Positions 3,215 to 39,734 of a stretch of 39,734 nt of DNA are shown here, one piece after another. Source of the DNA: Escherichia phage vB_EcoM_SHAK7854. Position numbers and translations under genes: made by a program. Within the stretch, counting starts at the first letter, position 1. Each line of letters begins with the position of its first letter. The stretch lies in sequence record OR594182. One strand, 5' to 3'. Under the pieces are notes generated by a model that was not told where the DNA came from, made no database searches, and saw nothing but the letters and a program-made list of their open reading frames with translations.

Positions 3215-3341
3215 GTACCACATCAACACGAAACAACGGTGACGACCAACACTGAAACGGTCTACCTGAAGTCCTCTGACTGAAGGGAATGCTCTTTAAC
3301 AATCTGGATAAACTCTTAATGTGCGCCGACAGTGATTAACT

Positions 3342-3390
3342 ACAGGGTCTTTGAGTCTACATCTGAAGGCCCTGACTGATAGCCACTAAC
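3342..3390 (+). repeat. early intergenic hairpin element type A, copy 1 (candidate RNase III site)
   Basis: GTGATTAACTACAGG...CCTGACTGATAG element with internal inverted repeat; precedes ORF 3398. Confidence 0.5.
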
Positions 3391-3654: not shown

Positions 3655-3705
3655 GTGATTAACTACAGGTCGTTAGACTGATAGCGGCCTGACTGATAGT
3701 CACTA
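3655..3705 (+). repeat. early intergenic hairpin element type A, copy 2
   Basis: GTGATTAACTACAGGTCGTTAGACTGATAGCGGCCTGACTGATAGTCACTA; CAGGTC/GGCCTG stem. Confidence 0.55.
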
Positions 3706-3725
3706 GCAACCTAAGAGGATTCATT

Positions 3726-4004
3726 ATGAGACTGAACAAAGCTACAGCAGAAGCCTTTCGCAAGGAGCTTGAATCAAGATTATTGTGTGGAGTGGCGGAA
3801 GGAGCCGCTCGATATAAAGAGAATGGTCTAACGTTCAAGCGCTTTATGTGGGATTGCTATCACGGAGTGGGCCATAAAAAGTCGCAGGAAATAATCACCA
3901 GCAACAATGCGGAAGTGCAAGTGATAGGAGGATACATGGCTAACGTGAAGGATTCACACATAGAGACAATGCTTAAGAATGCACTTAAAGATGTAGCCTA
4001 CTAG
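3726..4004 (+). CDS. hypothetical early protein (92 aa)
   Basis: ORF with AGAGGA RBS 7 nt upstream. Confidence 0.6.
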   Translation: MRLNKATAEAFRKELESRLLCGVAEGAARYKENGLTFKRFMWDCYHGVGHKKSQEIITSNNAEVQVIGGYMANVKDSHIETMLKNALKDVAY

Positions 4005-4054
4005 TGATTAACTACAGGTCGTTAGACTGATAGCGGCCTGACTGATAGTCACTA
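4004..4054 (+). repeat. early intergenic hairpin element type A, copy 3
   Basis: identical to copy 2 over about 50 bp. Confidence 0.55.
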
Positions 4055-4084
4055 ACACATAATTAACTTTGAGAGGATATAACT

Positions 4085-5791: not shown

Positions 5792-5796
5792 TTCTG

Positions 5797-5819
5797 ACTT
5801 AACTATCACTATAGGACTC
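5797..5819 (+). promoter_or_regulatory. phage RNAP promoter immediately upstream of the RNAP gene
   Basis: CTTAACTATCACTATAGGACTCA; +1 GGA. Confidence 0.6.
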
Positions 5820-9042: not shown

Positions 9043-9116
9043 CAGACATACAGTTACTGGCCCTGTGGCTGGGAGCACTCGCAGTATTCACTTTAATCCA
9101 ACGCAGAAGAGGTTAA
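9039..9116 (+). CDS. hypothetical hydrophobic peptide (25 aa)
   Basis: ATGA overlap with upstream stop; MTDIQLLALWLGALAVFTLIQRRRG. Confidence 0.25.
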   Translation: MTDIQLLALWLGALAVFTLIQRRRG

Positions 9117-9117
9117 C

Positions 9118-9140
9118 CCTAAACTATCACTATAGGATTA
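9118..9140 (+). promoter_or_regulatory. phage RNAP promoter (phi1.1-like)
   Basis: CCTAAACTATCACTATAGGATTA. Confidence 0.7.
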
Positions 9141-9182
9141 GACTCAAGGTCATGACTCAAAGTCGTGGCCTTCATGATTAAC
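9138..9182 (+). repeat. hairpin element type B (candidate RNase III site, R1.1-like)
   Basis: TTAGACTCAAGGTCATGACT...AGTCGTGGCCTT imperfect 12-bp stem. Confidence 0.5.
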
Positions 9183-9213
9183 CCTAAATAAACACTACTG
9201 GAGATTTAACCGT

Positions 9214-10760: not shown

Positions 10761-10795
10761 TGCTAGCAAGCTATCGTCTGGGCCACCAGTTAGAC

Positions 10796-10818
10796 CCTAA
10801 GCTATCACTATAGGACAA
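10796..10818 (+). promoter_or_regulatory. phage RNAP promoter
   Basis: CCTAAGCTATCACTATAGGACAA. Confidence 0.65.
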
Positions 10819-11814: not shown

Positions 11815-11969
11815 CTGACGTAGAGAAGAAGTACATCGTGGAGCTTGAGGGTCGCATTCAGTCCTTCGAGGTTCCGGTGTACGCAAAGTCTCTTGAAGAG
11901 GCTACCCTGAAGTCCCAAGAGTATGAGGACGCTGGGTTTGTGGTCGGACGGATTCGTCCTGAGACCTAA
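11811..11969 (+). CDS. Gp2-like inhibitor of host RNA polymerase (52 aa)
   Basis: [14 protein letters not shown]...[10 protein letters not shown] resembles T7 Gp2 SFEVPIYAETLDEA...AGFEVTRVRP. Confidence 0.75.
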
Positions 11970-11987
11970 ACTATCACTGTAGGACAG
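11965..11987 (+). promoter_or_regulatory. phage RNAP promoter, variant (TGTAGG)
   Basis: CCTAAACTATCACTGTAGGACAG; stop codon of the Gp2-like gene lies within it. Confidence 0.55.
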
Positions 11988-14144: not shown

Positions 14145-14360
14145 ATGATTAAACTTATCGAATTTCTTGGTCGTCTGGTGGTGCGTGGTTATCGTCGTGC
14201 TGCGGTACTGGAACGAAAGGTAGAAAAGAAGACTGCGGACGGTGCGGCTGATGCTGCTGCTCTGGCTGACAAGCTGACCATCGCGTCACTGGAAGCTGGC
14301 ATGAAGGCGCGTCAGGCTGACACCAAAGCCGACCAGTTGGCTCAGTTCTTCAAAGCCTAA
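14145..14360 (+). CDS. hypothetical protein (71 aa; gene 3.8 position)
   Basis: AGGGAGAA RBS; Ala/Lys-rich, probably helical. Confidence 0.5.
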   Translation: MIKLIEFLGRLVVRGYRRAAVLERKVEKKTADGAADAAALADKLTIASLEAGMKARQADTKADQLAQFFKA

Positions 14361-14378
14361 ACTATCACCTTAGGGATG
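14356..14378 (+). promoter_or_regulatory. phage RNAP promoter, variant (CCTTAGGG)
   Basis: CCTAAACTATCACCTTAGGGATG; overlaps upstream stop; followed by GGGAC...GTCCC hairpin. Confidence 0.5.
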
Positions 14379-16140: not shown

Positions 16141-16305
16141 TTGCTAAGAAAACTTAAAGCTCGCTACCATCGGTTCATGTACAAATGGTGGAGCGACGAA
16201 GCAACCTGCCTGTCGAACATTCTGGGAGACCAGCGGTTCAACTCTGAGGCATGGAAGAAAGCTAACCGGAAGTTCATGTATCACTTCTTGCGTACAGACT
16301 TCTAG
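16141..16305 (+). CDS. hypothetical basic protein (54 aa; gene 4.3-4.5 region), TTG start
   Basis: AAGGAGGAG RBS; the ORF-track ATG start at 16108 lies inside gp4. Confidence 0.35.
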   Translation: MLRKLKARYHRFMYKWWSDEATCLSNILGDQRFNSEAWKKANRKFMYHFLRTDF

Positions 16306-16357
16306 GTCTAGACTCAAGGTCATTCACATAGAGTGGCCTTTATGATTAGACTAAACG
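16306..16357 (+). repeat. hairpin element type B (candidate RNase III site)
   Basis: GTCTAGACTCAAGGTCAT...GTGGCCTTTATGATTAGAC. Confidence 0.5.
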
Positions 16358-19923: not shown

Positions 19924-20019
19924 GCATGTACAAGTGGTTCGGGTCGAACAACCGCCCTAAACACTGAGTCTAACCGATAGTCATATCCTATCAATCCAAC
20001 AGTCATCCATAGGTGAAAT

Positions 20020-20042
20020 ACTAAACTATCACTATAGGGACT
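20020..20042 (+). promoter_or_regulatory. phage RNAP promoter (phi6.5-like)
   Basis: ACTAAACTATCACTATAGGGACT. Confidence 0.75.
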
Positions 20043-21294: not shown

Positions 21295-22863
21295 ATGGCT
21301 GAACGTGAAGGGTTCGCTGCTGAAGGAGCCAAAGCGGTCTATGACCGACTGAAGAACGGTAGACAGCCATATGAGACACGCGCTCAGAACTGTGCTGCTG
21401 TCACTATCCCGTCACTGTTTCCTAAGGAGTCCGACAACTCGTCTACTGAGTACACCACTCCGTGGCAAGCTGTGGGTGCTCGCTGCTTGAACAACTTGGC
21501 TGCGAAGCTGATGTTGGCATTATTCCCTCAGTCACCGTGGATGCGACTTACAGTCTCCGAATATGAGGCAAAGACCTTGAGTCAGGACTCAGAGGCGGCT
21601 GCTCGTGTTGATGAAGGGCTGGCTATGGTCGAGCGTGTGTTGATGGCTTACATGGAGACTAACAGTTTCCGTGTCCCATTATTCGAGGCGCTGAAGCAGC
21701 TTATCGTCTCAGGTAACTGCCTGCTCTACATCCCTCCTCCAGAACAAGGAACCTACAGTCCTATGCGAATGTACCGCTTAGTGTCCTACGTTGTTCAACG
21801 TGATGCTTTCGGTAACATCTTACAGATTGTGACTCTCGACAAGGTAGCGTTTAGTGCTCTACCGGAAGACGTGAAGTCTCAACTCAACGCAGACGACTAT
21901 GAGCCTGACACCGAGCTTGAAGTCTATACGCACATCTACCGTCAGGACGACGAGTATCTGCGCTACGAGGAAGTGGAAGGCATTGAGGTGACAGGTACCG
22001 ATGGTTCCTACCCGCTGACTGCATGTCCATACATCCCGGTACGAATGGTTCGACTGGATGGTGAAGACTACGGTCGTTCTTACTGCGAGGAGTATCTGGG
22101 CGACCTCAACTCGCTGGAGACGATTACAGAAGCTATCACAAAAATGGCTAAGGTAGCCTCCAAGGTGGTGGGCCTCGTTAACCCGAACGGTATCACGCAG
22201 CCTAGACGTCTGAACAAGGCGGCTACAGGTGAGTTCGTGGCTGGTCGAGTTGAGGACATCAACTTCCTGCAACTGACGAAAGGTCAGGACTTTACGATTG
22301 CTAAGTCGGTGGCTGACGCTATCGAGCAACGTTTAGGCTGGGCCTTCCTTCTTAATAGTGCTGTTCAGCGTAATGCCGAGCGTGTCACTGCTGAAGAGAT
22401 TCGTTATGTTGCTGGCGAACTGGAGGCGACCTTAGGTGGCGTGTACTCAGTACAGTCACAAGAGCTTCAGTTGCCTATCGTCCGTGTGCTGATGAACCAA
22501 CTTCAGTCTGCTGGCATGATTCCAGACCTTCCGAAAGAAGCGGTAGAGCCTACGGTCTCCACTGGTCTGGAAGCGTTAGGTCGTGGTCAGGACTTAGAGA
22601 AGCTGACTCAGGCAGTCAACATGATGACCGGGCTACAGCCTCTACAACAGGACCCAGACATTAACTTGCCTACACTGAAGCTGCGACTGCTGAATGCCTT
22701 AGGCATTGACACCGCTGGTCTGCTACTGACTCAGGACGAGAAGTTGCAACGCATGGCTGAACAATCCGCTCAAGGAGCTGTGGTCAATGGTGCGTCTGCT
22801 GCTGGTGCTAACATGGGTGCTGCTGTGGGTCAGGGAGCTGGTGAGGACATGGCTCAAGCCTAA
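21295..22863 (+). CDS. portal (head-tail connector) protein (T7 gp8 family)
   Basis: YETRAQNCA, TIPSLFPK, TPWQAVGAR, YVVQRDAFGN, LRYEEVEG, GRSYCEEYLGDL, RVTAEEIRYVA. Confidence 0.95.
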   Translation: MAEREGFAAEGAKAVYDRLKNGRQPYETRAQNCAAVTIPSLFPKESDNSSTEYTTPWQAVGARCLNNLAAKLMLALFPQSPWMRLTVSEYEAKTLSQDSEAAARVDEGLAMVERVLMAYMETNSFRVPLFEALKQLIVSGNCLLYIPPPEQGTYSPMRMYRLVSYVVQRDAFGNILQIVTLDKVAFSALPEDVKSQLNADDYEPDTELEVYTHIYRQDDEYLRYEEVEGIEVTGTDGSYPLTACPYIPVRMVRLDGEDYGRSYCEEYLGDLNSLETITEAITKMAKVASKVVGLVNPNGITQPRRLNKAATGEFVAGRVEDINFLQLTKGQDFTIAKSVADAIEQRLGWAFLLNSAVQRNAERVTAEEIRYVAGELEATLGGVYSVQSQELQLPIVRVLMNQLQSAGMIPDLPKEAVEPTVSTGLEALGRGQDLEKLTQAVNMMTGLQPLQQDPDINLPTLKLRLLNALGIDTAGLLLTQDEKLQRMAEQSAQGAVVNGASAAGANMGAAVGQGAGEDMAQA

Positions 22864-22881
22864 ACTATCACTATAGGAACA
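22859..22881 (+). promoter_or_regulatory. phage RNAP promoter (phi9-like)
   Basis: CCTAAACTATCACTATAGGAACA; overlaps portal stop codon. Confidence 0.7.
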
Positions 22882-22952: not shown

Positions 22953-23837
22953 ATGTCTCAATCAGTTTATGCCGAGTTCGGCGTTAGCTCTAATGCAATC
23001 ACTGGTTCCGTTGAGGACCTGAACGAACACCAGAAGTCTATGCTTGAACAGGACGTAGCTGTTCGTGATGGCGATGACGCTATTACCTTCAAGCAACTGG
23101 AAGCCGAAAACGAAGAGGCGACCGAAGAAGACGAGAACGTCGAAGAGACGGAGGGTGCTGAAGACAACGAGTCCGATGACGAAGAGTCTGAGACCGATGG
23201 TGAGCAGCCTGAGTTCATTGAACTGGGTGATGCACCGAAAGAGCTGACCGAAAGTGTCACCGCTCTGGATGAAAACGAAGCTGCATTTGACGACATGGTG
23301 TCTTCCGCTGTAGAAGCTGGCAAGGTCACTGCTGATGAAATTACCGCTATCAAGGCTGAATACGCCAAGGACGGTAAGCTGTCTGACGCATCCTACGCTA
23401 AGTTGCAGGAAGCAGGTTACACCAAGCGTTTCGTAGATTCGTTTGTCCGTGGTCAGGAAGCTCTGGCTGAACAGTATGCTGCTGGAGTGGTTCGCTACGC
23501 TGGTGGAGCTGAACAGTTTAACCGCATTCTGTCTCACCTTGAGTCAACCGACCCGTCAACTCGTGAGGCACTGGAAGCTGCTATCGTTCGTAAGGACATT
23601 TCGACTACCAAAGCTCTGCTGAATCTGGCTGGCAAGACTCTGGGTAAAGCTGTTGGTGTTAAACCTCAGCGTACCATCACCACTCAGGCTAAACCTGTGG
23701 TCGCACCTAAGGCTCCTCAGACCGAAGCATTCAGCTCCAAGGCTGACATGATTAAGGCTATGAGTGACCCGCGATACCTTCGTGACGCTAAGTACACGAT
23801 GGAAGTACGCGCTAAGGTAGCTGCCTCAAGCCTGTAG
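22953..23837 (+). CDS. capsid assembly scaffolding protein (T7 gp9 family)
   Basis: VYAEFGVSS, acidic central region, GYTKRFVDSFVRGQEALAEQY, IKAMSDPRY; start at ATG 22953 after AAGGAG. Confidence 0.9.
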   Translation: MSQSVYAEFGVSSNAITGSVEDLNEHQKSMLEQDVAVRDGDDAITFKQLEAENEEATEEDENVEETEGAEDNESDDEESETDGEQPEFIELGDAPKELTESVTALDENEAAFDDMVSSAVEAGKVTADEITAIKAEYAKDGKLSDASYAKLQEAGYTKRFVDSFVRGQEALAEQYAAGVVRYAGGAEQFNRILSHLESTDPSTREALEAAIVRKDISTTKALLNLAGKTLGKAVGVKPQRTITTQAKPVVAPKAPQTEAFSSKADMIKAMSDPRYLRDAKYTMEVRAKVAASSL

Positions 23838-23838
23838 G

Positions 23839-23861
23839 ACTAAACTATCACTATAGGGAGA
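23839..23861 (+). promoter_or_regulatory. phage RNAP promoter (phi10-like, strongest consensus match)
   Basis: ACTAAACTATCACTATAGGGAGA; +1..+6 GGGAGA as in T7 class III. Confidence 0.8.
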
Positions 23862-28611: not shown

Positions 28612-28656
28612 GGGCCTATAGATTTACCTTAACTATCACTATAGGGACTATAGGCC
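28612..28656 (+). other. 10-bp perfect inverted repeat (GGGCCTATAG / CTATAGGCCC) enclosing the promoter before gene 13
   Basis: arms at 28612..28621 and 28647..28656. Confidence 0.5.
28627..28649 (+). promoter_or_regulatory. phage RNAP promoter (phi13-like)
   Basis: CCTTAACTATCACTATAGGGACT. Confidence 0.7.
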
Positions 28657-32029: not shown

Positions 32030-35000
32030 ATGGCGACTCGTGGTATTCGCAATAACAATCCGGGTAACATCCGGGTAAGTAAGGACCAATGGGAAGGAAT
32101 GACTGGAGATGATGGCGCATTCGTCACCTTCGATAGTCCAGAGTCTGGCGTCCGAGCTTTAGGTAAAAACCTGCTGTCCTACGGTCGCCAAGGTTATGAT
32201 TCCATCGAGAAGATTATCAACAGATGGGCACCTCCTAACGAGAACGACACTAAGGCTTATATTGACTCAGTGGTGGCTGCAACTGGTATTCCAGCTACAC
32301 AGAGTCTCGACCTATCGGACCCTGACACCCTGTCTTCTCTGGCACAAGCTATCAGCTTCCATGAGACAGGCTCACGGTACGACCCTGAAGTCTATCAGAA
32401 GGGAGTCGCACGGGCACTCAACGGCATTAGCCCAAAGACTCCACCAGTAAGCGCTAACGTATTTGACGCACTCACGGAAGGACTCAAGGCTAAACCTAAA
32501 GTAGCTCTGGGTGAGAACCTTCCGACCGCTGCTGGTCTGAACATTGAGGGTCAAGCACCTGAATCTCCCAACGAATCGTTCGGTGAGATGTTCTATAAGG
32601 CTACTGGAGAGACCATGCAGGAGCAAGAGGACCGCTCTACGTGGTTCGGTTTCGGTGCGGCTACAGAAGCTGAAGTGAAGAACTCTATGGTCGGCGTGGC
32701 TATACGAGCTGGTCAGACTGAGGACTCACTGGATGTCATTGGCGATGTGTTCAACCCAACCAGATGGAACAACCATAAGTGGTCTCGTGAGGAGCTAGAC
32801 CAGATTCGTAACGCTGGGGTTTTGCCTCAGTATTACGGAGTCATTACTGGTGGATCTCCTCAGAACCTGACCGAGCTTATTAACTTGGCGCTTGAGAACC
32901 AGAAGTTGGACCAAGAGAAGGCCAAGGCTGGGACTGGTGCTCAACTGGCGGCTGGTGTGATTGGTGCTGGCGTGGACCCTCTGACCTACGTTCCTATTGC
33001 TGGGCAGGTAGGTAAAGGTGGTAAGCTAGTCAACAAGATGTTCACTGTGGCTGCTCAGTCTGGTGCTCTGGCTGGGGCATCCGAGATTGCTCGAACCTCA
33101 GTTGCTGGTGGGGACGCTCATGTTGCTGAAGCTATCCTTGGTGGTGCTCTCTTCGGTGGTGGCATGACTGCTATCGCTGATGGACTAGGTAGAGCCTTAG
33201 GTCGCAACACTAATGAGTTTGCTGGTCCAGCTACACGTTTGGAAGCTCGTGAGACCGCTCGTAACGTTGATGGTCAGGACCTGTCCCGTCTCCCTATTCA
33301 GGAAGGTGAGCAGACCTTTAGTCATCAAGGCGTTAAGTTCGCTGACGTTCCGAATGAGCCGGGAAGTGTACGATTAGAAGACGGTTCAATCCTGATTGGT
33401 GAGAACCCTCTGAACCCTAAGACACGTCAAGTCTTTGACGAAGTGATTGAGCCGGAACGTGCCGCTGCTGGTGTTAACCTTGGTGGACTTACCGAGATTG
33501 GCCTGAAGCTGCTTCGGTCTGAGAACCCTGAGATTCGTGGAGTAGCTGCTGACTTAGTGCGTTCACCTACTGGTATGCAGTCTGGGGCCTCAGGTAAAAT
33601 CGGGACAACAGCGTCAGACGTGTTCGAGAGACTTCGTGCTGTGGACCATCGGTTCTACAACGACATAGACGATGCGGTTACTGAGGCACTCAAGGATCCG
33701 TACTTCCAGACAGCATTCTGGCGAGACTCTGGCGCATTCCGTCAGGACATCTACCAGCGTGTGTCTATGGCTATTGAAGACGGAAGTGGGAACCTGAAGG
33801 CTGAACTGACTCCGGGAGAACTGAAAGTCTATGACCTACTGAAGAACCAGTTCGACGCCAAGCGTGAGATGATGGAGAACCCAGCGATGTTTGGTCGTCC
33901 AGACGCTCAGTCTATCTTTCCGGGTAGCCGCTTCAAGGGAACCTACGTCCCTCATGTGTATAGCAAACAGATGAAGGAGCTGTACATCAAGGAGCTTGGG
34001 AGTCCAGAGGCGTTGCAGGAGGCCATCAAGAAGTCATGGTTGACCAGCTATGCGTCTCGACCTGAAGTCAAGAAACGCGTGGACGAGGCACTTTTAGAGG
34101 CTGACCCTACGTTGACTCCAGAAGGACTTGCGGCTGCGGTCGATAAGTACGCCAACGATAAGGCTTATGGTATCTCTCACACCGAGCAGTTCGAGCGTTC
34201 ATCCGTAATGGAGGAGAACATCAACGGGCTGGTGGGTCTGGAGAACAACAGCTTCCTTGAGGCTCGTAACCTGTTCGATAGCGATATGTCAATCGTTCTT
34301 CCTAACGGTCAGACCTTCAGTGTCAACAACCTGCGTGAGTGGGACATGGACAAGATTGTCCCGGCCTACAACCGTCGAGTTAATGGTGATATTGCTATCA
34401 TGGCTGGTACAGGCAAGACCACGAAGGAAATGAAGGACTTAGTTGAGACCATGATGAACAAGGCTGGCGATGACGGAAAGTTGAAAGGTGAAGTATCTAC
34501 CTTACGTGACACCCTGAAGATTCTCACTGGTCGTGCTCGACGTGATGGTGCTGATGATGCGGCCTTCGCTACCGTGATGCGCACGATGACAGACCTATCG
34601 TTCTTCGCTAAGAATGCCTACATGGGTGTTCAGAACTTAACGGAGATTGGTGGTATGCTGGCTCGTGGTAACGTTCGTGCCCTGCTACACGGAGTACCGA
34701 TGTTCCGTGACCTAGCCTTCCGTAACAAGAAGGTCGGGGCCTCGGAGATTAAGGACCTGCATAATGTTATCTTCGGTAAAGAATTAGACGACTCAATCCG
34801 TCCGTCTAAACAGGATGTTATCGACCGTCTGCGATCTTACAGTGACCTTAGTCGTGGTACAGCTACAGCTCTGGGGACTGCTAAGTATTACACTGGTGAA
34901 CTTGTAGTACGCTCTCCGTTCACTAAAGTCCTCAACGGTACGACCAACTACCTGTTAGATGCTGGACGTCAAGGCTTCCTGTCTGACATAGTGGAGCATA

Positions 35001-35917
35001 GCCTGACTGGTAGTAAGCGTAAGTTCGATGACCGCTGGCTGAAGACCGCTGGTATATCTGACGAGCAGTGGAGTGGAATTAAGTCCCTAATCCGTGAGTC
35101 AGTGACTCGTGGGCCAGACGGGAAGTACACCATCAAGGATAAGAAGGCATTCAGTCAGGACCCAAGGGCTATGGACCTGTGGCGTATGGGTGACACCATC
35201 GCTGACGAGACGTTACTCCGGCCTCATAAGCTGTCAAACATGGACGCCAAGGCTTATGGTCCTCTCGCTAAGACTGTCCTTCAGTTTAAGAACTTCGTCA
35301 TCAAGTCTATCAATGGGAGAACCATGCGAACCTTCTATAACGCCACGAAGAACAACAGAGCGATTGACGCTGCACTGTCGACCGTGATGTCTATGGGTCT
35401 GGCTGGTATCTACTACATGGCTCAGGCGCATGTCAAGGCTTATGCTATGCAGGATGGTCGAGACCGTGACTACCTTAAGCAAGCTCTGGACCCAACGATG
35501 ATTGGCTATGCGGCCCTGTCCCGTAGTTCACATCTTGGTGGCCCACTTGGGGTAGCTAACATTCTGGGAGGCATCGCTGGATATGAGGACACTAAGATGC
35601 TCCGTTCGTCTATCCTACCTCGTTCTCCTACAGAGAAGCCTGAGCGTGCCATCGCGTATGGTGCAGCTACAAGTGACCCTGTGATGAATGTTGTTGGTAA
35701 CTTCTTGGAGCAGGTTCCAGCTTTCGGATATGCTGCTAACGTTGGCGCTTCGGCTTACAACTTGGCTGGCTACCTCAAGGCTGATACTCGTGTCAACGAG
35801 CGTGACTACATGACCGGGATGTATAATACGTTCCGTGAACTGGTTCCGAACGACCCCATTACCCAGAAGCTGCTGCTTGGAACGTTTGAGGAGCAAGGCA
35901 TCCACATCAAGGACTAA
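32030..35917 (+). CDS. internal virion protein C/D (T7 gp16 family) with divergent N-terminal domain
   Basis: 1295 aa; from about residue 200 collinear with T7 gp16 (RWNSHIWT-like, GGSPQNL, VRSPTGMQSGASGK, TYVPHVY, RPEVK, AYGISH, ENNSFLEARNLFDSD, RRVNGDIAIM, FFAKNAYMG, NGTTNYLLDA, RAMDLWR, NNRAIDAALS, DPTMIGYAALSRSS, LVPNDP). Confidence 0.93.
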   Translation: MATRGIRNNNPGNIRVSKDQWEGMTGDDGAFVTFDSPESGVRALGKNLLSYGRQGYDSIEKIINRWAPPNENDTKAYIDSVVAATGIPATQSLDLSDPDTLSSLAQAISFHETGSRYDPEVYQKGVARALNGISPKTPPVSANVFDALTEGLKAKPKVALGENLPTAAGLNIEGQAPESPNESFGEMFYKATGETMQEQEDRSTWFGFGAATEAEVKNSMVGVAIRAGQTEDSLDVIGDVFNPTRWNNHKWSREELDQIRNAGVLPQYYGVITGGSPQNLTELINLALENQKLDQEKAKAGTGAQLAAGVIGAGVDPLTYVPIAGQVGKGGKLVNKMFTVAAQSGALAGASEIARTSVAGGDAHVAEAILGGALFGGGMTAIADGLGRALGRNTNEFAGPATRLEARETARNVDGQDLSRLPIQEGEQTFSHQGVKFADVPNEPGSVRLEDGSILIGENPLNPKTRQVFDEVIEPERAAAGVNLGGLTEIGLKLLRSENPEIRGVAADLVRSPTGMQSGASGKIGTTASDVFERLRAVDHRFYNDIDDAVTEALKDPYFQTAFWRDSGAFRQDIYQRVSMAIEDGSGNLKAELTPGELKVYDLLKNQFDAKREMMENPAMFGRPDAQSIFPGSRFKGTYVPHVYSKQMKELYIKELGSPEALQEAIKKSWLTSYASRPEVKKRVDEALLEADPTLTPEGLAAAVDKYANDKAYGISHTEQFERSSVMEENINGLVGLENNSFLEARNLFDSDMSIVLPNGQTFSVNNLREWDMDKIVPAYNRRVNGDIAIMAGTGKTTKEMKDLVETMMNKAGDDGKLKGEVSTLRDTLKILTGRARRDGADDAAFATVMRTMTDLSFFAKNAYMGVQNLTEIGGMLARGNVRALLHGVPMFRDLAFRNKKVGASEIKDLHNVIFGKELDDSIRPSKQDVIDRLRSYSDLSRGTATALGTAKYYTGELVVRSPFTKVLNGTTNYLLDAGRQGFLSDIVEHSLTGSKRKFDDRWLKTAGISDEQWSGIKSLIRESVTRGPDGKYTIKDKKAFSQDPRAMDLWRMGDTIADETLLRPHKLSNMDAKAYGPLAKTVLQFKNFVIKSINGRTMRTFYNATKNNRAIDAALSTVMSMGLAGIYYMAQAHVKAYAMQDGRDRDYLKQALDPTMIGYAALSRSSHLGGPLGVANILGGIAGYEDTKMLRSSILPRSPTEKPERAIAYGAATSDPVMNVVGNFLEQVPAFGYAANVGASAYNLAGYLKADTRVNERDYMTGMYNTFRELVPNDPITQKLLLGTFEEQGIHIKD

Positions 35918-35935
35918 ACTATCACTATAGGAAAC
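35913..35935 (+). promoter_or_regulatory. phage RNAP promoter (phi17-like)
   Basis: ACTAAACTATCACTATAGGAAAC; overlaps gp16 stop codon. Confidence 0.7.
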
Positions 35936-35981
35936 TGGAGGCGCTACCATAGGTCTCCATTTAAATCACAAAGGAGGCATA

Positions 35982-38513
35982 ATGTCCACGATTACACAAT
36001 TCCCTTCAGGAACCACTCAGTACAGGATTGAGTTCGACTACCTAGCCAGAACGTTTGTTGTTGTTACGCTGGTGAATAGCTCTAACCCTACCCTGAACCG
36101 TGTACTGGAAGTTGGTCGAGATTACCGATTCCTTAATCCAACGATGATTGAGATGTTGGTTGACCAATCAGGTTTCGACATAGTTCGTATTCACCGTCAG
36201 ACTGGAACTGACTTAGTGGTAGATTTCAGGAATGGCTCAGTGTTGACAGCTAGTGACCTGACCAATTCAGAGCTTCAGGCTATCCATATTGCAGAAGAAG
36301 GTCGAGACCAAACGGTTGACTTAGCGAAGGAATATGCCGATGCTGCTGGTAGCTCTGCTGGCAACGCTAAGGATAGCGAGGACGAAGCACGCCGAATCGC
36401 TGCGAGTATCAGGGAAGCTGGTCTAATTGGCTATATTACCCGTCGCTCCTTCGAGAAAGGCTACAACGTTACAACATGGAGCGAGGTCCTGCTATGGGAA
36501 GAGGATGGTGATTATTACCGCTGGGATGGTACGCTTCCAAAGAACGTTCCTGCTGGTTCAACTCCTGAAACTTCCGGTGGGATTGGATTAGGTGCGTGGG
36601 TTAGTGTTGGTGATGCTGCTTTAAGAAGTCAGATTTCAAACCCGGAAGGGGCAATACTCTACCCGGAATTGCAGATGGCAAGATGGCGTGATGAGGGTGA
36701 TGTTCGAGGCTGGGGTGCTAAAGGGGATGGTGTAACAGATAGTACGGAGAATATAGCTGCTTCACTAAATTCTCAAAAAGCTGTCGTAGCATCAGAAGGT
36801 GTATTCTCTAGTTCTGGTATTAATAGTAATTACTGTAACTTAGACGGTAGAGGTAGTGGCGTGCTAAGTCACCGTTCCAGTACAGGTAACTACTTAGTAT
36901 TTAACAATCCACGTACAGGTCGCTTAAGTAATATTACGGTAGAAAGTAATAAGGCGACTGATACAACTCAGGGACATCAGGTATCTCTTGCCGGTGGAAG
37001 TGATGTTACTGTAAGTGACGTTAACTTCTCAAACGTTAAAGGTACTGGTTTCAGTTTAATCGCATACCCTAATGATGCGCCACCTGATGGACTTATGATT
37101 AAAGGCATTCGAGGTAGCTATTCCGGATATGCTACTAATAAGGTAGCAGGATGCGTACTTGCTGACTCATCAGTTAACTCCCTCATAGATAACGTCATTG
37201 CTAAGAACTACCCTCAGTTCGGAGCAGTAGAGTTGAAAGGTACAGCCAGTTATAACATAGTAAGTAATGTTATAGGGGCAGATTGCCAGCATGTAACTTA
37301 CAACGGCACTGAAGGGCCAATAGCTCCTTCTAATAACCTTATCAAGGGGGTGATGGCTAATAACCCTAAGTATGCAGCGGTTGTTGCAGGCAAAGGAAGT
37401 ACGAACTTAATCTCAGACGTGCTCGTAGATTACTCAACTTCTGATGCTAGGCAGTCTCATGGTGTTACCGTAGAAGGGTCTGATAACGTCATAAATAATG
37501 TGCTTATGTCAGGATGTGATGGTACTAACTCTTTAGGACAAGGGCAGACTGCTGCAATTGCACGCTTTATAGGTACAGCTAATAACAACTATGCGTCTGT
37601 ATTTCCTAGCTACAGTGCTACAGGTGTTATTACTTTCGAATCCGGCTCTACCCGTAACTTCGTAGAGGTAAAGCACCCTGGCAGGAGGAACGACCTTCTC
37701 AGTTCTGCTAGTACTATTGACGGTGCAGCTACTATTGACGGCACTAATAATAGTAACGTAGTGCACGCACCCGCCTTAGGGCAGTACATAGGTAGTATGT
37801 CAGGTAGGTTCGAATGGCGGATTAAGTCCATGTCACTTCCGTCAGGCGTTCTTACCTCGGCTGATAAGTACAGAATGCTTGGGGATGGTGCTGTGTCATT
37901 AGCTGTAGGAGGGGGTACTTCTTCTCAAGTTCGCTTATTTACTTCTGATGGTACTTATCGGACAGTATCGCTCACCAACGGTAACGTGCGTCTTCCTACC
38001 AGTAGCACAGGTTATTTGCAGTTAGGTTCTGATGCAATGACACCAGATAGTACTAATACATACGCATTAGGTTCCGCAAGTAGAGCATGGTCTGGCGGTT
38101 TTACTCAATCAGCATTCACTGTTGTCTCAGATGCTAGGGATAAAACAGAGCCTCTTAATATCTCAGATGCTTTACTGGATGCTTGGTCTGAAGTTGACTT
38201 TGTGCAGTTTCAGTACTTGGACCGAATTGAGGAGAAGGGTGCAGACTCAGCTAGATGGCACTTCGGCATCATCGCTCAGCGAGCTAAGGAGGCATTCGAA
38301 CGTCACGGTATAGATGCACATCGCTATGGCTTCCTGTGCTTCGACAGTTGGGATGATGTATACGAGGAAGATGCCAATGGCTCTCGTAAACTGATTACAC
38401 CAGCAGGTTCCCGCTACGGTATTCGTTACGAGGAAGTACTGATATTAGAGGCTGCGTTGATGCGGCGTACTATTAAGCGTATGCAGGAAGCATTAGCTGT
38501 TATGTCTAAGTGA
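35982..38513 (+). CDS. tail fiber / tailspike (gp17): T7-like N-terminal adaptor, beta-helix-like central domain, C-terminal intramolecular chaperone-like domain
   Basis: N-terminus FDYLARTFVVVTL, DYRF, VDFRNGSVLTASDL, IAEEGRDQT matches T7 gp17; central region has short repeated beta-strand-like segments; C-terminus carries SDARDK Ser-Lys motif. Confidence 0.9.
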   Translation: MSTITQFPSGTTQYRIEFDYLARTFVVVTLVNSSNPTLNRVLEVGRDYRFLNPTMIEMLVDQSGFDIVRIHRQTGTDLVVDFRNGSVLTASDLTNSELQAIHIAEEGRDQTVDLAKEYADAAGSSAGNAKDSEDEARRIAASIREAGLIGYITRRSFEKGYNVTTWSEVLLWEEDGDYYRWDGTLPKNVPAGSTPETSGGIGLGAWVSVGDAALRSQISNPEGAILYPELQMARWRDEGDVRGWGAKGDGVTDSTENIAASLNSQKAVVASEGVFSSSGINSNYCNLDGRGSGVLSHRSSTGNYLVFNNPRTGRLSNITVESNKATDTTQGHQVSLAGGSDVTVSDVNFSNVKGTGFSLIAYPNDAPPDGLMIKGIRGSYSGYATNKVAGCVLADSSVNSLIDNVIAKNYPQFGAVELKGTASYNIVSNVIGADCQHVTYNGTEGPIAPSNNLIKGVMANNPKYAAVVAGKGSTNLISDVLVDYSTSDARQSHGVTVEGSDNVINNVLMSGCDGTNSLGQGQTAAIARFIGTANNNYASVFPSYSATGVITFESGSTRNFVEVKHPGRRNDLLSSASTIDGAATIDGTNNSNVVHAPALGQYIGSMSGRFEWRIKSMSLPSGVLTSADKYRMLGDGAVSLAVGGGTSSQVRLFTSDGTYRTVSLTNGNVRLPTSSTGYLQLGSDAMTPDSTNTYALGSASRAWSGGFTQSAFTVVSDARDKTEPLNISDALLDAWSEVDFVQFQYLDRIEEKGADSARWHFGIIAQRAKEAFERHGIDAHRYGFLCFDSWDDVYEEDANGSRKLITPAGSRYGIRYEEVLILEAALMRRTIKRMQEALAVMSK

Positions 38514-38614
38514 GTAATACTGGAAAGAATCGAAGCCAGACTTTCTGCTCTTGAACAGAAGTAATAAACAAACCATTTTGCCATTAAGTTGGTGGGTAGA
38601 TGTTAGAGGGTTGT

Positions 38615-38623
38615 GGGGGGGGG
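38615..38623. repeat. G9 homopolymer tract in the gene 17-17.5 intergenic region
   Basis: nine consecutive G read directly. Confidence 0.9.
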
Positions 38624-38699
38624 TAGAGACTAACTACACGCTAACCAACGTATGTAACAACTTTGGGTCACGGACGACCCGCTTTAAACTGGAGGTTTT

Positions 38700-38894
38700 A
38701 TGATTGAGTTAGACTTCAAGAATGAGGTCCTTAAAGCCTCTCCTATCGTCGGGACCGCTGCGGCTGATGGTGCCAGTCGGTTCTTCTTCGGACTTACACT
38801 GAACGAATGGTTCTACGTTGCAGCTATCGCGTACACCGTTGTCCAGATTGGTGTGCTAGTCTATAAAACGATTAAAGGAGGTGGTAAAACATGA
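38700..38894 (+). CDS. holin (T7 gp17.5 family)
   Basis: LDFKNEVLKASPIVGT, FFFGLTLNEWFYVAAIAYTVVQIG closely matches T7 gp17.5. Confidence 0.88.
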   Translation: MIELDFKNEVLKASPIVGTAAADGASRFFFGLTLNEWFYVAAIAYTVVQIGVLVYKTIKGGGKT

Positions 38895-39154
38895 CGCAGA
38901 TGGACTTAGAGAAGTTCCTCTTGATGCTTGATACTGAGCGTGCTCGACTTATGCTGCAAGACTTGCGGGATGACACTAAGCGTTCACCTCAGCTCTACAA
39001 CGCCATTGAGAAGCTGCTTGCTCGTCACAACTTTGTGTTAAGCAAGGTGTCTGTTGACGAGAAGACGCTGGCTGATATGGAGGCCCTGAACGCAGAGTAC
39101 GATAAGGTGCTTTCAGCGACTGAGGATAATGACACCGGGTATGGCGTTCAATAA
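38891..39154 (+). CDS. terminase small subunit (T7 gp18 family)
   Basis: LMLDTERA, RSPQLYNAIEKLLARH matches T7 gp18. Confidence 0.85.
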   Translation: MTQMDLEKFLLMLDTERARLMLQDLRDDTKRSPQLYNAIEKLLARHNFVLSKVSVDEKTLADMEALNAEYDKVLSATEDNDTGYGVQ

Positions 39155-39155
39155 G

Positions 39156-39205
39156 TGTTAGACTCAAGGTCATTACTGTATGTAGTGGCCTTTATGGTTA
39201 ACACT
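39156..39205 (+). repeat. hairpin element type B (candidate RNase III site, R18.5-like)
   Basis: GTGTTAGACTCAAGGTCATTACTGTATGTAGTGGCCTTTATGGTTAACAC. Confidence 0.5.
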
Positions 39206-39255
39206 AACTAGTGGAGGAGACTCTACGTGCAATCTGATAAACCGGGAGGGCAACT

Positions 39256-39705
39256 ATGCTCGAATTTTTAAAGAGAGCGGCTCCGTGGTTACTTGCAGCA
39301 GTGATGTTTGCTGGTGGCTACCACACCGCTAACAATAAGTGGGAGGCTAAGGTAAATGAAGAATACACCTCGAATCTTAAGGCATCGGAAGATACAAGGC
39401 TTGCTGTCCAAGCTGAAGTCAACAAAGTGTCCAAACGGTTTCAGGACGAAATGTCCTCGCTGGAAGGCAGCACTGATAGGATTATTGCTGATCTTCAGTC
39501 TGACAATAAGCGGTTGCGCATCCGAGTCAAACCAACGAGTGGAACCACGCAAAGTGACGGTCGATGCTTCATTGATGGTTACGCCGAACTTGACGAACGA
39601 GATGCTAAACGTCTTATCGCCATCGGAGTGAAAGGAGACAAGTGGATTAAGGCCCTTCAAGACACTGTGAGAGCCTTACAGCAAGAGAAGGAGGTGACGC
39701 ATTGA
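39256..39705 (+). CDS. Rz-like inner-membrane spanin (T7 gp18.5 family)
   Basis: MLEFL, LEGSTDRIIADLQSDNKRLRIRVK, ELDERDAKRL, WIKALQDTVRALQ matches T7 gp18.5. Confidence 0.88.
   Translation: MLEFLKRAAPWLLAAVMFAGGYHTANNKWEAKVNEEYTSNLKASEDTRLAVQAEVNKVSKRFQDEMSSLEGSTDRIIADLQSDNKRLRIRVKPTSGTTQSDGRCFIDGYAELDERDAKRLIAIGVKGDKWIKALQDTVRALQQEKEVTH
39356..39631 (+). CDS. Rz1-like outer-membrane lipoprotein spanin embedded in gp18.5 (+1 frame)
   Basis: PRWKAALIGLLLIFSLTISGCASES lipobox with Cys, then VDASLMVTPNLTNEMLNV. Confidence 0.7.
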   Translation: MKNTPRILRHRKIQGLLSKLKSTKCPNGFRTKCPRWKAALIGLLLIFSLTISGCASESNQRVEPRKVTVDASLMVTPNLTNEMLNVLSPSE

Positions 39706-39734
39706 GTAAAGACTTAGTGGCGCGTCAGGCGCTA
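39702..39734 (+). CDS. N-terminal fragment of terminase large subunit (TTG start), 3-prime partial at window end
   Basis: AAGGAGGTGA RBS then TTG; reading frame is contiguous with position 1. Confidence 0.5.
   Translation, partial: MSKDLVARQAL

Follow-up and report, generated by a model that had tools for sequence, protein, structure and literature searches.

The window, that is, the whole 39,734-nt stretch of Escherichia phage vB_EcoM_SHAK7854 that was analysed (sequence record OR594182), carries a Kayfunavirus backbone, with 97.8% identity to vB_EcoP-PM129 over 20 kb. The open reading frame at 35982..38513 lies where T7-like late operons have gene 17, with gp16 ahead of it and the holin and gp18 behind, as it also does in annotated relatives, and its neighbours are a gp16 equivalent, a T7-family holin, a DNA packaging protein, the Rz/Rz1 spanins and the terminase. 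The whole gene is present in thirteen Kayfunavirus records at 96–99% DNA identity, and its product aligns end to end with PDB chain 9vvr_A ("Tail spike protein", 843 aa; 1821 bits). Searches of NCBIfam returned no family, and Rfam had no hits across the window. Two minus-strand open reading frames inside the gene (37533-37766 and 37610-37831) were unsupported and were set aside as spurious. The features of the locus are the following:

35910..35932, plus strand: phage-RNA-polymerase promoter-like 23-mer AGGACTAAACTATCACTATAGGA, conserved and present in 12 copies along the plus strand
35982..38513, plus strand: tailspike precursor gene (gene 17 equivalent), an open reading frame of 843 aa, 90.3 kDa
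35982..36431, plus strand: T7 gp17-type tail-attachment (adaptor) domain, aa 1-150 (PF03906 at aa 10-115; T7 gp17 chains)
36447..36614, plus strand: Tail_spike_N (TSP1/gp66-type) domain, aa 156-211 (PF18668, 69.2 bits, Pfam)
36705..38129, plus strand: K5 (heparosan) lyase domain, aa 242-716 (2x3h_A match, phrog_14895)
36735..36746, plus strand: 5' recombination junction at G-D-G-x-T-D codons, gene nt 754-765 (switch between K1F and K5A identity)
37230..37301, plus strand: codons for E417, K419 and Y440, equivalent to KflA E206, K208 and Y229 (alignment with K5A KflA and UE-S5b)
38127..38510, plus strand: Peptidase_S74 C-terminal intramolecular chaperone, aa 716-843 (PF13884, 3gud, 3gw6)
38516..38564, plus strand: remnant of the replaced gene 17 of K1F type (renewed K1F identity from 38516; base alignment and translation)

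The 23-mer at 35910..35932 overlaps the end of gene 16, and the tailspike ATG lies 50 nt downstream of it. Its position is presumably that of the T7 promoter phi17, and by this analogy the 23-mer is a putative phage promoter, from which the tailspike gene would be transcribed late by the phage polymerase. Scans for sigma-70 promoters and intrinsic terminators around the gene remained at chance level.

The first-pass annotation had proposed that the first 150 or so residues match the tail-attachment domain of T7 gp17, and this was borne out both by PF03906 (Phage_T7_tail), found over aa 10-115 with 56.4 bits for a Pfam gathering threshold of 25.2, and by the T7 gp17 chains 7boz, 8dsp and 8e4g, which align to aa 7-116 only. 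The further statement that the following 560 or so residues are unrelated to T7 gp17 also holds. The boundary drawn at aa 150 had to be moved, because the conserved module, which includes the Tail_spike_N domain (matched over aa 156-211 by chains 4oj5, 5w6h and 6nw9), extends from gene nt 1 to about nt 635 (aa ~211) in most Kayfunavirus relatives and to nt 759 (aa 253) in K1F; the start at 36430 given in the first-pass annotation is also off the codon register by one base. T7 gp17 resembles the window tailspike in the tail-binding domain at the N-terminus (PF03906 over aa 10-115) and in its genomic position between gene 16 and the holin gene. The rest of the T7 protein is a fibre without enzymatic activity that carries a receptor-binding tip at its distal end and lacks beta-helix, lyase and S74 domains. 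Judging from T7 and from the 18 chains of entry 9VVR, the T7 gp17-type domain (aa 1-150) and the Tail_spike_N neck (aa 156-211) would anchor six trimers to the tail.

Downstream of the attachment module, residues 68-542 of chain 2x3h_A ("K5 LYASE", KflA) align to aa 242-716 with an E-value of 1.1e-290 and about 22 differences in 475 residues, and phrog_14895 (PHROGs) covers aa 209-843 with 1306 bits. Compared over aa 242-843, the window tailspike and KflA of coliphage K5A differ at 29 amino acids, 11 of which are clustered at aa 242-272, adjoining the 5' junction. KflA is a trimeric beta-helical capsule lyase in which a beta-helix is followed by a triple-stranded beta-helix (PMC8822698), and the lyase domain of the window protein is expected to form likewise a parallel beta-helix that continues into a triple-stranded beta-helix stalk (roughly aa 653-715). 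The stalk stretch is common to other S74 proteins (6eu4 at aa 653-815, 3gw6 at aa 681-838). An AlphaFold2 model of aa 150-720, computed from the single sequence without an alignment, was uninformative (mean pLDDT 32.5), so that the fold assignment rests on the ~95–97% identity to the solved 2X3H and 9VVR.

Glu206, Lys208 and Tyr229 of KflA are reportedly the catalytic residues proposed by Thompson et al. 2010. These positions do carry E, K and Y in KflA, and all three equivalents (E417, K419 and Y440) are conserved in the alignment of the window tailspike, K5A KflA and UE-S5b. A text search of the literature for catalytic residue names together with KflA returned nothing relevant. The K5 depolymerase has been reported to degrade K5 capsule in vitro, with a 52 kDa form "after proteolysis" (PMC5696595). 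The lyase would cleave the K5 capsule polysaccharide by beta-elimination at a site including E417, K419 and Y440, and such cleavage would let the virion bore through the capsule and reach the outer membrane. Degradation of the E. coli K5 capsule is the likely function of the tailspike, which would thereby set host range. The beta-helix enzyme cleaving capsule or O-antigen that the first-pass annotation had suggested agrees well with a protein ~95% identical to the K5 lyase KflA (2X3H), and given this identity to a characterised enzyme the phage should be K5-specific.

The C-terminal 127–128 aa belong to the Peptidase_S74 chaperones: PF13884 was detected over aa 716-776 (52.8 bits; Pfam gathering threshold 22), and 3gud and 3gw6 align to aa 716-834 and aa 681-838, respectively. 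The window and K1F chaperone domains are only 30% identical by BLASTP; in the same alignment S716, K721 and R701 face S911, K916 and R897 of K1F gp17. The Ser-Lys autocleavage mechanism and the roles of the equivalent residues have been described for T5 (PMC4690869), and Ser716/Lys721 is the predicted autocleavage dyad (Ser-x4-Lys) of the window protein. By analogy with K1F and T5, the 90-kDa precursor would trimerise, the S74 domain (aa 716-843) would template the intertwined triple beta-helix stalk, and this domain would then cleave itself off at Ser716 through the Ser716-Lys721 dyad, with Arg701, contributed by a neighbouring chain, as the likely folding-sensor arginine. Self-cleavage at Ser716 would leave a mature subunit of ~75.5 kDa (computed masses: precursor 90.3 kDa, mature subunit 75.5 kDa, C-terminal fragment 14.8 kDa). 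The first-pass annotation mentioned neither the Tail_spike_N domain nor the autocleaving chaperone, nor that the protein is known and solved.

We conclude, with a probability of roughly 93%, that the product of 35982..38513 is a tailspike with a K5 capsule lyase as its receptor-destroying module and that the phage is a Kayfunavirus (K1F-like, T7 supergroup). Tailspikes of this kind are already known, characterised and structurally solved, and the gene reveals no new biology. KflA of coliphage K5A (Y10025; PDB 2X3H) and the equivalent proteins of K1-5 and of Vectrevirus phages such as VEc3 have the catalytic beta-helix and the stalk that are predicted for the window protein and share its S74 domain. 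Aa 242-843 of the window protein are the counterpart of KflA aa 31-632, at 95.9% DNA identity. KflA, however, carries only a ~30-aa N-terminal peptide, docking on a separate adaptor in SP6-like phages (PMC5380687), whereas the window enzyme is fused to a T7/K1F-type tail-attachment module of 241–253 aa, hence a precursor of 843 aa instead of 632 aa. Chain A of PDB 9VVR, an 18-chain entry, has the same length and architecture and is the version of a sister phage, with a few dozen scattered point differences. Within the literature library consulted, searches found no publication on 9VVR and no recent cryo-EM work on a T7-like K5 phage. The gp17 endosialidase of K1F (endoNF) comes from the same genus and gene position, is 96% identical in DNA over its first 253 codons and has the same design of adaptor, depolymerase and S74 chaperone, its Ser/Lys/Arg cleavage site aligning with that of the window protein, but its catalytic module is an endosialidase for K1 polysialic acid where the window has a K5 lyase.

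The comparison with K1F allowed us to map the borders of the exchange. The two flanks are collinear with K1F, at 95.2% identity over 32482..36740 and at 96.4% over 38516..39629, and the 1.78-kb interval between them is 95.9% identical to kflA of K5A. At the 5' side, K1F identity (96.2%) stops at gene nt 759, and K5A kflA identity (95.9%) begins at nt 754. At the 3' side, a now non-coding relic begins directly after the lyase stop codon and comprises the last 14 codons and the stop of a K1F-type gene 17, LERIEARLSALEQK*, at 38520-38564 (45 nt); the equivalent stretch lies inside the tailspike coding sequence in K1-type phages, and phage PM129 retains a longer relic of 214 nt. In comparison with K1F, a 1775-nt kflA-type cassette has taken the place of 2387 nt of a gene 17 of K1F type, a stretch comprising the catalytic part of the endosialidase and most of its chaperone domain. 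One crossover lies in the G-D-G-x-T-D codons and the other at the stop codon, and a 45–49-nt fossil of the old 3' end has persisted. The junctions and the fossil record what appears to be a change of capsule type from K1 to K5 in an ancestor resembling K1F. Horizontal acquisition, which the first-pass annotation had suggested from base composition, is shown directly by this mapping against K1F and K5A.

The composition of the gene was also unusual. The richness in Gly, Ser, Asn, Thr and Val noted at first reading was found again: the remaining 32 window proteins consist to 31.0% of these five residues, whose share reaches 48.9% in aa 150-716 and 51.2% in aa 242-716. The proposed AT-richness is real, since the GC content of 36430-38130 is 0.451 compared to 0.498 for the window and the lyase domain has a GC3 of 0.331, but the drop in GC3 is not limited to the lyase part and extends to the adaptor (0.447) and the S74 domain (0.441). 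By GC content alone, 1.1% of non-overlapping 1701-nt sub-windows are equally low, the lowest near 2761 in the early/terminal region. For GC3, 2348 equal-sized (475-codon) sub-windows in other genes gave a mean of 0.559 (sd 0.043, minimum 0.461), and the synonymous-codon G statistic was 174 for the lyase domain against a maximum of 84 elsewhere; the tailspike gene as a whole has the lowest GC3 of the 33 genes (0.376). Composition is not uniform, uniformity across the gene being what the first-pass annotation had named as speaking against its reading. Gene 17 of K1F is itself low in GC3 (0.39), and the donor is not identifiable from composition alone. The low GC3 of the cassette nevertheless fits lower-GC phages such as Vectrevirus and Gamaleyavirus better than the window genome: Vectrevirus VEc3 has a genome GC of 0.450 and a structural-gene GC3 of 0.36–0.39, and the 9.9-kb UE-S5b locus has a GC of 0.438. 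A Vectrevirus-like source is an unproven candidate for the ultimate donor.

Other readings of the locus can be weighed on the same evidence. That the protein is a fibrous, non-enzymatic fibre like T7 gp17, the alternative named in the first-pass annotation, is favoured by the N-terminal domain alone and we regard it as practically negligible, given that beyond aa 7-116 the alignment is to the K5 lyase beta-helix and to S74 proteins; the predicted fold is not that of a T7 fibre. It is very improbable, though slightly less so, that the compositional dip reflects amino-acid bias or local selection on a native gene instead of transfer. The lyase domain does have an unusual amino-acid make-up (51% G/S/N/T/V) and GC3 is lowered across the whole gene, the conserved adaptor included, but neither GC3 nor the synonymous-codon G statistic depends on amino-acid content, both fall well outside the range of the genome, and the sharp K1F/K5A junctions and the fossil of the displaced gene show transfer directly. 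The domain might also act in binding only, or have drifted towards another glycan such as O-antigen or host-mucosal heparan sulfate, without K5 lyase action. A precedent exists in the ES17 tail fibre, which resembles the binding domain of K5 lyase, bound heparan sulfate and had no reported capsule depolymerase activity (PMC7885116), and the window tailspike carries 29 substitutions relative to KflA. ES17 is however only remotely similar to K5 lyase, whereas the window protein is ~95% identical to an active enzyme, conserves E417, K419 and Y440 and contains a cassette labelled K5 lyase in the annotations of phage K5 and UPEC phages, so that we give this reading little credence. For the same reason ES17 was rejected as the closest analogue, the window protein being essentially KflA.

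The direction of transfer is less settled. Gamaleyavirus phages UE-S5a, UE-S5b, UE-M3 and UE-M6 (Schitoviridae) carry a K5 lyase that is 93.4% identical over gene nt 615-2542 and has the same K1F/K5A junction, but these N4-like phages of ~74 kb have another N-terminal attachment region, and an endosialidase gene adjoins the lyase. In UE-S5b, sequence of Kayfunavirus type is found in the lyase over gene nt 615-759, at the junction, which is identical, and in the 10 nt past the stop, and the endosialidase beside it has a K1F-type 3' end followed by 32 nt of intergenic DNA of K1F type. Kayfunavirus sequences thus do pass to other families, which makes it conceivable, if rather unlikely, that the lyase cassette is ancestral in Kayfunavirus-type phages and reached Vectrevirus/K5A and Gamaleyavirus from there, in which case the 3' relic would stem from a later event. 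Against such a reversal, the relic shows that a K1F-type gene 17 was resident in the window lineage before the lyase arrived, and the cassette GC3 of 0.33 fits Vectrevirus structural genes (0.36–0.39) and not the window genome (0.56). We favour entry of the cassette into a K1F-like ancestor, and the junctions and the fossil suggest that the recombinant cassette may have been passed on to N4-like Gamaleyavirus phages.

The K5 polysaccharide is chemically the unsulfated precursor of heparan sulfate. The virion lyase could for this reason also bind or trim N-acetylated heparan sulfate domains on gut or urinary epithelium, a speculative extension to which we assign a low probability. If true, such binding or trimming would locate the phage on mucosal surfaces, which has been reported for the distantly related ES17 fibre (PMC7885116).

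The tailspike is the probable host-range determinant of the phage, whose host is most likely K5-encapsulated E. coli; the K5 capsule type is common in extra-intestinal infection (PMC5696595). As most GenBank relatives label the gene "hypothetical protein", the identification is useful for annotation, and the cassette swap is also useful to phage host-range engineering. For the change of capsule specificity in T7-like phages the locus provides a clean, base-resolved case, in which a depolymerase-plus-chaperone cassette was exchanged behind a conserved adaptor.

The window is a complete T7-like phage genome in circularly permuted form, opening with the ATG start codon of the large terminase (1-1731). 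It contains a perfect tandem duplicate of 183 nt (2424-2606 and 2607-2789; 2424-2789 in all), in which the direct terminal repeats from both ends of the linear genome are most likely joined head to tail. Across 20 kb the window shares 97.8% identity with Kayfunavirus phages, vB_EcoP-PM129 among them. Positions 36430-38130 fall inside a single long + strand ORF (35982..38513, 843 aa) that occupies the gene 17 position in the following setting:

Upstream of the tailspike ORF: gp16-equivalent internal virion protein (from window ORFs and annotated relatives)
35910-35932, + strand: phage-promoter-like 23-mer, 50 nt before the tailspike ATG
Downstream of the tailspike ORF: T7-family holin, DNA packaging protein and nested Rz/Rz1 spanins (from window ORFs and annotated relatives)
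1823-1845, 5794-5816, 9115-9137, 9180-9202, 10793-10815, 11962-11984, + strand: 23-mer copies 1-6
14353-14375, 20017-20039, 22856-22878, 23836-23858, 28624-28646, 35910-35932, + strand: 23-mer copies 7-12

The 12 + strand copies of the 23-mer, with a consensus of about CTAAACTATCACTATAGGA, look like a phage RNA polymerase promoter set. Three related elements of ~55 nt that form stable hairpins (9133-9190, 16303-16348 and, between gene 18 and Rz, 39153-39210; -19 to -23 kcal/mol, z -3.1 to -4.6), for which Rfam returned no match, resemble T7 RNase III processing sites. A 54-nt intergenic repeat follows successive small early genes (3655-3708 and 4004-4057, 98% identical; also 3331-3346). In the closest relatives, PM129 (L006:4159-4596) and 22664UKE3-2 (L007:4183-4620), an HNH homing endonuclease gene sits between the Rz and large-terminase genes; none is present there in the window (39705-39734 and 1).

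Kayfunavirus K1F is collinear with the window from gene 16 to nt 759 of gene 17 (32482..36740) at 95.2%, and collinearity resumes from 38516 to 39629 at 96.4%. Between these blocks, gene nt 754-2536 share 95.9% identity with kflA, the K5 lyase gene of coliphage K5A, and 95.5% with Vectrevirus VEc3. The 5' crossover coincides with the codons of a shared G-D-G-x-T-D motif and the 3' crossover with the stop codon. Straight after this stop, 38520-38564 reads LERIEARLSALEQK*, the last 14 codons and stop of K1F gene 17, and its counterpart in K1-type relatives falls within the tailspike CDS; 38516-38564 is a non-coding fossil of a K1F-type gene 17 end. Sister phage PM129 retains a longer relic of 214 nt, which carries the annotation 'tail fiber protein' (54 aa; L006:2885-3049). 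From the junctions and the fossil we conclude that a K1F-type gene 17, which in K1F encodes an endosialidase, was resident first and that its depolymerase-plus-chaperone part was replaced, in agreement with the horizontal acquisition proposed in the first-pass annotation.

The N-terminus matches T7 gp17 as anticipated: Pfam Phage_T7_tail covers aa 10-115 with a score above threshold, T7 gp17 PDB chains align only over aa 7-116, and the module agreed with gp17-type adaptors on every testable point. The proposed order of an adaptor followed by an unrelated part holds, but not the boundary at residue ~150, since the module conserved in the genus includes a Pfam Tail_spike_N domain (aa 156-211) and ends at aa ~211 in most relatives and at aa 253 in K1F.

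A match to the expected beta-helix capsule enzyme was also recovered, aa 242-716 aligning with PDB 2X3H, 'K5 lyase' (E 1.1e-290). Across aa 242-843 the protein differs from KflA of K5A (Y10025) at 29 positions, 11 of them within aa 242-272, adjoining the recombination junction. KflA residues E206, K208 and Y229, reportedly proposed as catalytic by Thompson et al. in 2010, do fall on glutamate, lysine and tyrosine in that protein, and all three are conserved at the corresponding positions, E417, K419 and Y440. Every testable property agreed with a KflA-type lyase apart from direct fold prediction, whose low confidence (pLDDT 32.5) means that the fold is assigned from identity to solved structures. 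KflA is a trimeric lyase with a central beta-helix followed by a triple-stranded beta-helix (PMC8822698), and a recombinant K5 depolymerase, 52 kDa 'after proteolysis', degraded K5 capsule (PMC5696595). The tailspike itself is already known: the whole gene is present in 13 deposited Kayfunavirus genomes at 96-99% identity (best MZ234011, 99.0%), and 'Tail spike protein' chain A of the 18-chain PDB entry 9VVR aligns end to end with all 843 aa. What is mildly fresh is confined to the junctions at base resolution and the remnant that the displaced gene left behind.

The final 127-128 residues, which the first-pass annotation left unmentioned, form a distinct Peptidase_S74 domain (PF13884, aa 716-776) that matches chaperone-domain structures 3GUD (aa 716-834) and 3GW6 (aa 681-838) and agreed with S74 chaperones on every testable point. 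By BLASTP, S911, K916 and R897 of K1F gp17 align with S716, K721 and R701. In the T5 and K1F systems a lysine five residues downstream activates the serine, and an arginine of the neighbouring chain acts as sensor, so that cleavage waits until the triple beta-helix has formed correctly (PMC4690869). The precursor has a predicted mass of 90.3 kDa, the mature protein one of about 75.5 kDa and the fragment set free by cleavage one of 14.8 kDa. The annotation of phage ZG49 (L003:3001-6241) splits the homologous tailspike into two adjacent CDS (686 and 386 aa); DNA identity to the window gene ends at gene nt 2049, and the 3' part has therefore been rearranged or replaced.

Composition bears out the low G+C noted earlier (0.451 for 36430-38130 vs 0.498 for the whole window), a value as low being found in only 1.1% of non-overlapping windows of that size, the lowest near 2761 in the early/terminal region. 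The codons for aa 242-716 have a GC3 of 0.331, compared with a mean of 0.559 (sd 0.043, minimum 0.461) in 2348 equal-sized windows of other genes, and the codon-usage G statistic reaches 174 against a maximum of 84. Gly, Ser, Asn, Thr and Val make up 48.9% of aa 150-716 vs 31.0% in the other 32 proteins, as the first-pass annotation had noticed. Cassette GC3 fits VEc3 structural genes (GC3 0.36-0.39; genome GC 0.450) and the locus of Gamaleyavirus UE-S5b (GC 0.438) better than the window genome. K1F gene 17 is likewise low (GC3 0.39), and composition therefore flags the locus as traded without naming the donor.

The lyase gene of N4-like UE-S5b shares gene nt 615-2542 with the window, identical junction included. 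In this locus (L002:1-5918) an endosialidase gene and a K5 lyase gene are direct neighbours, both with Kayfunavirus-type flanking sequence, the endosialidase ending in a K1F-type 3' end and 32 nt of K1F-type intergenic DNA. These flanks and the same K1F/K5A junction suggest that T7-like phages were the source of the cassettes; an onward transfer from Kayfunavirus to Gamaleyavirus is likewise suggested.

In the proposed mechanism, the chaperone domain would guide trimer folding and then cut itself off at Ser716, the gp17-type N-terminus would fix six trimers to the tail, and the beta-helix would break down K5 capsule, giving the virion access to the outer membrane. A beta-helix that degrades K5 capsule would therefore make this capsule the probable determinant of host range.
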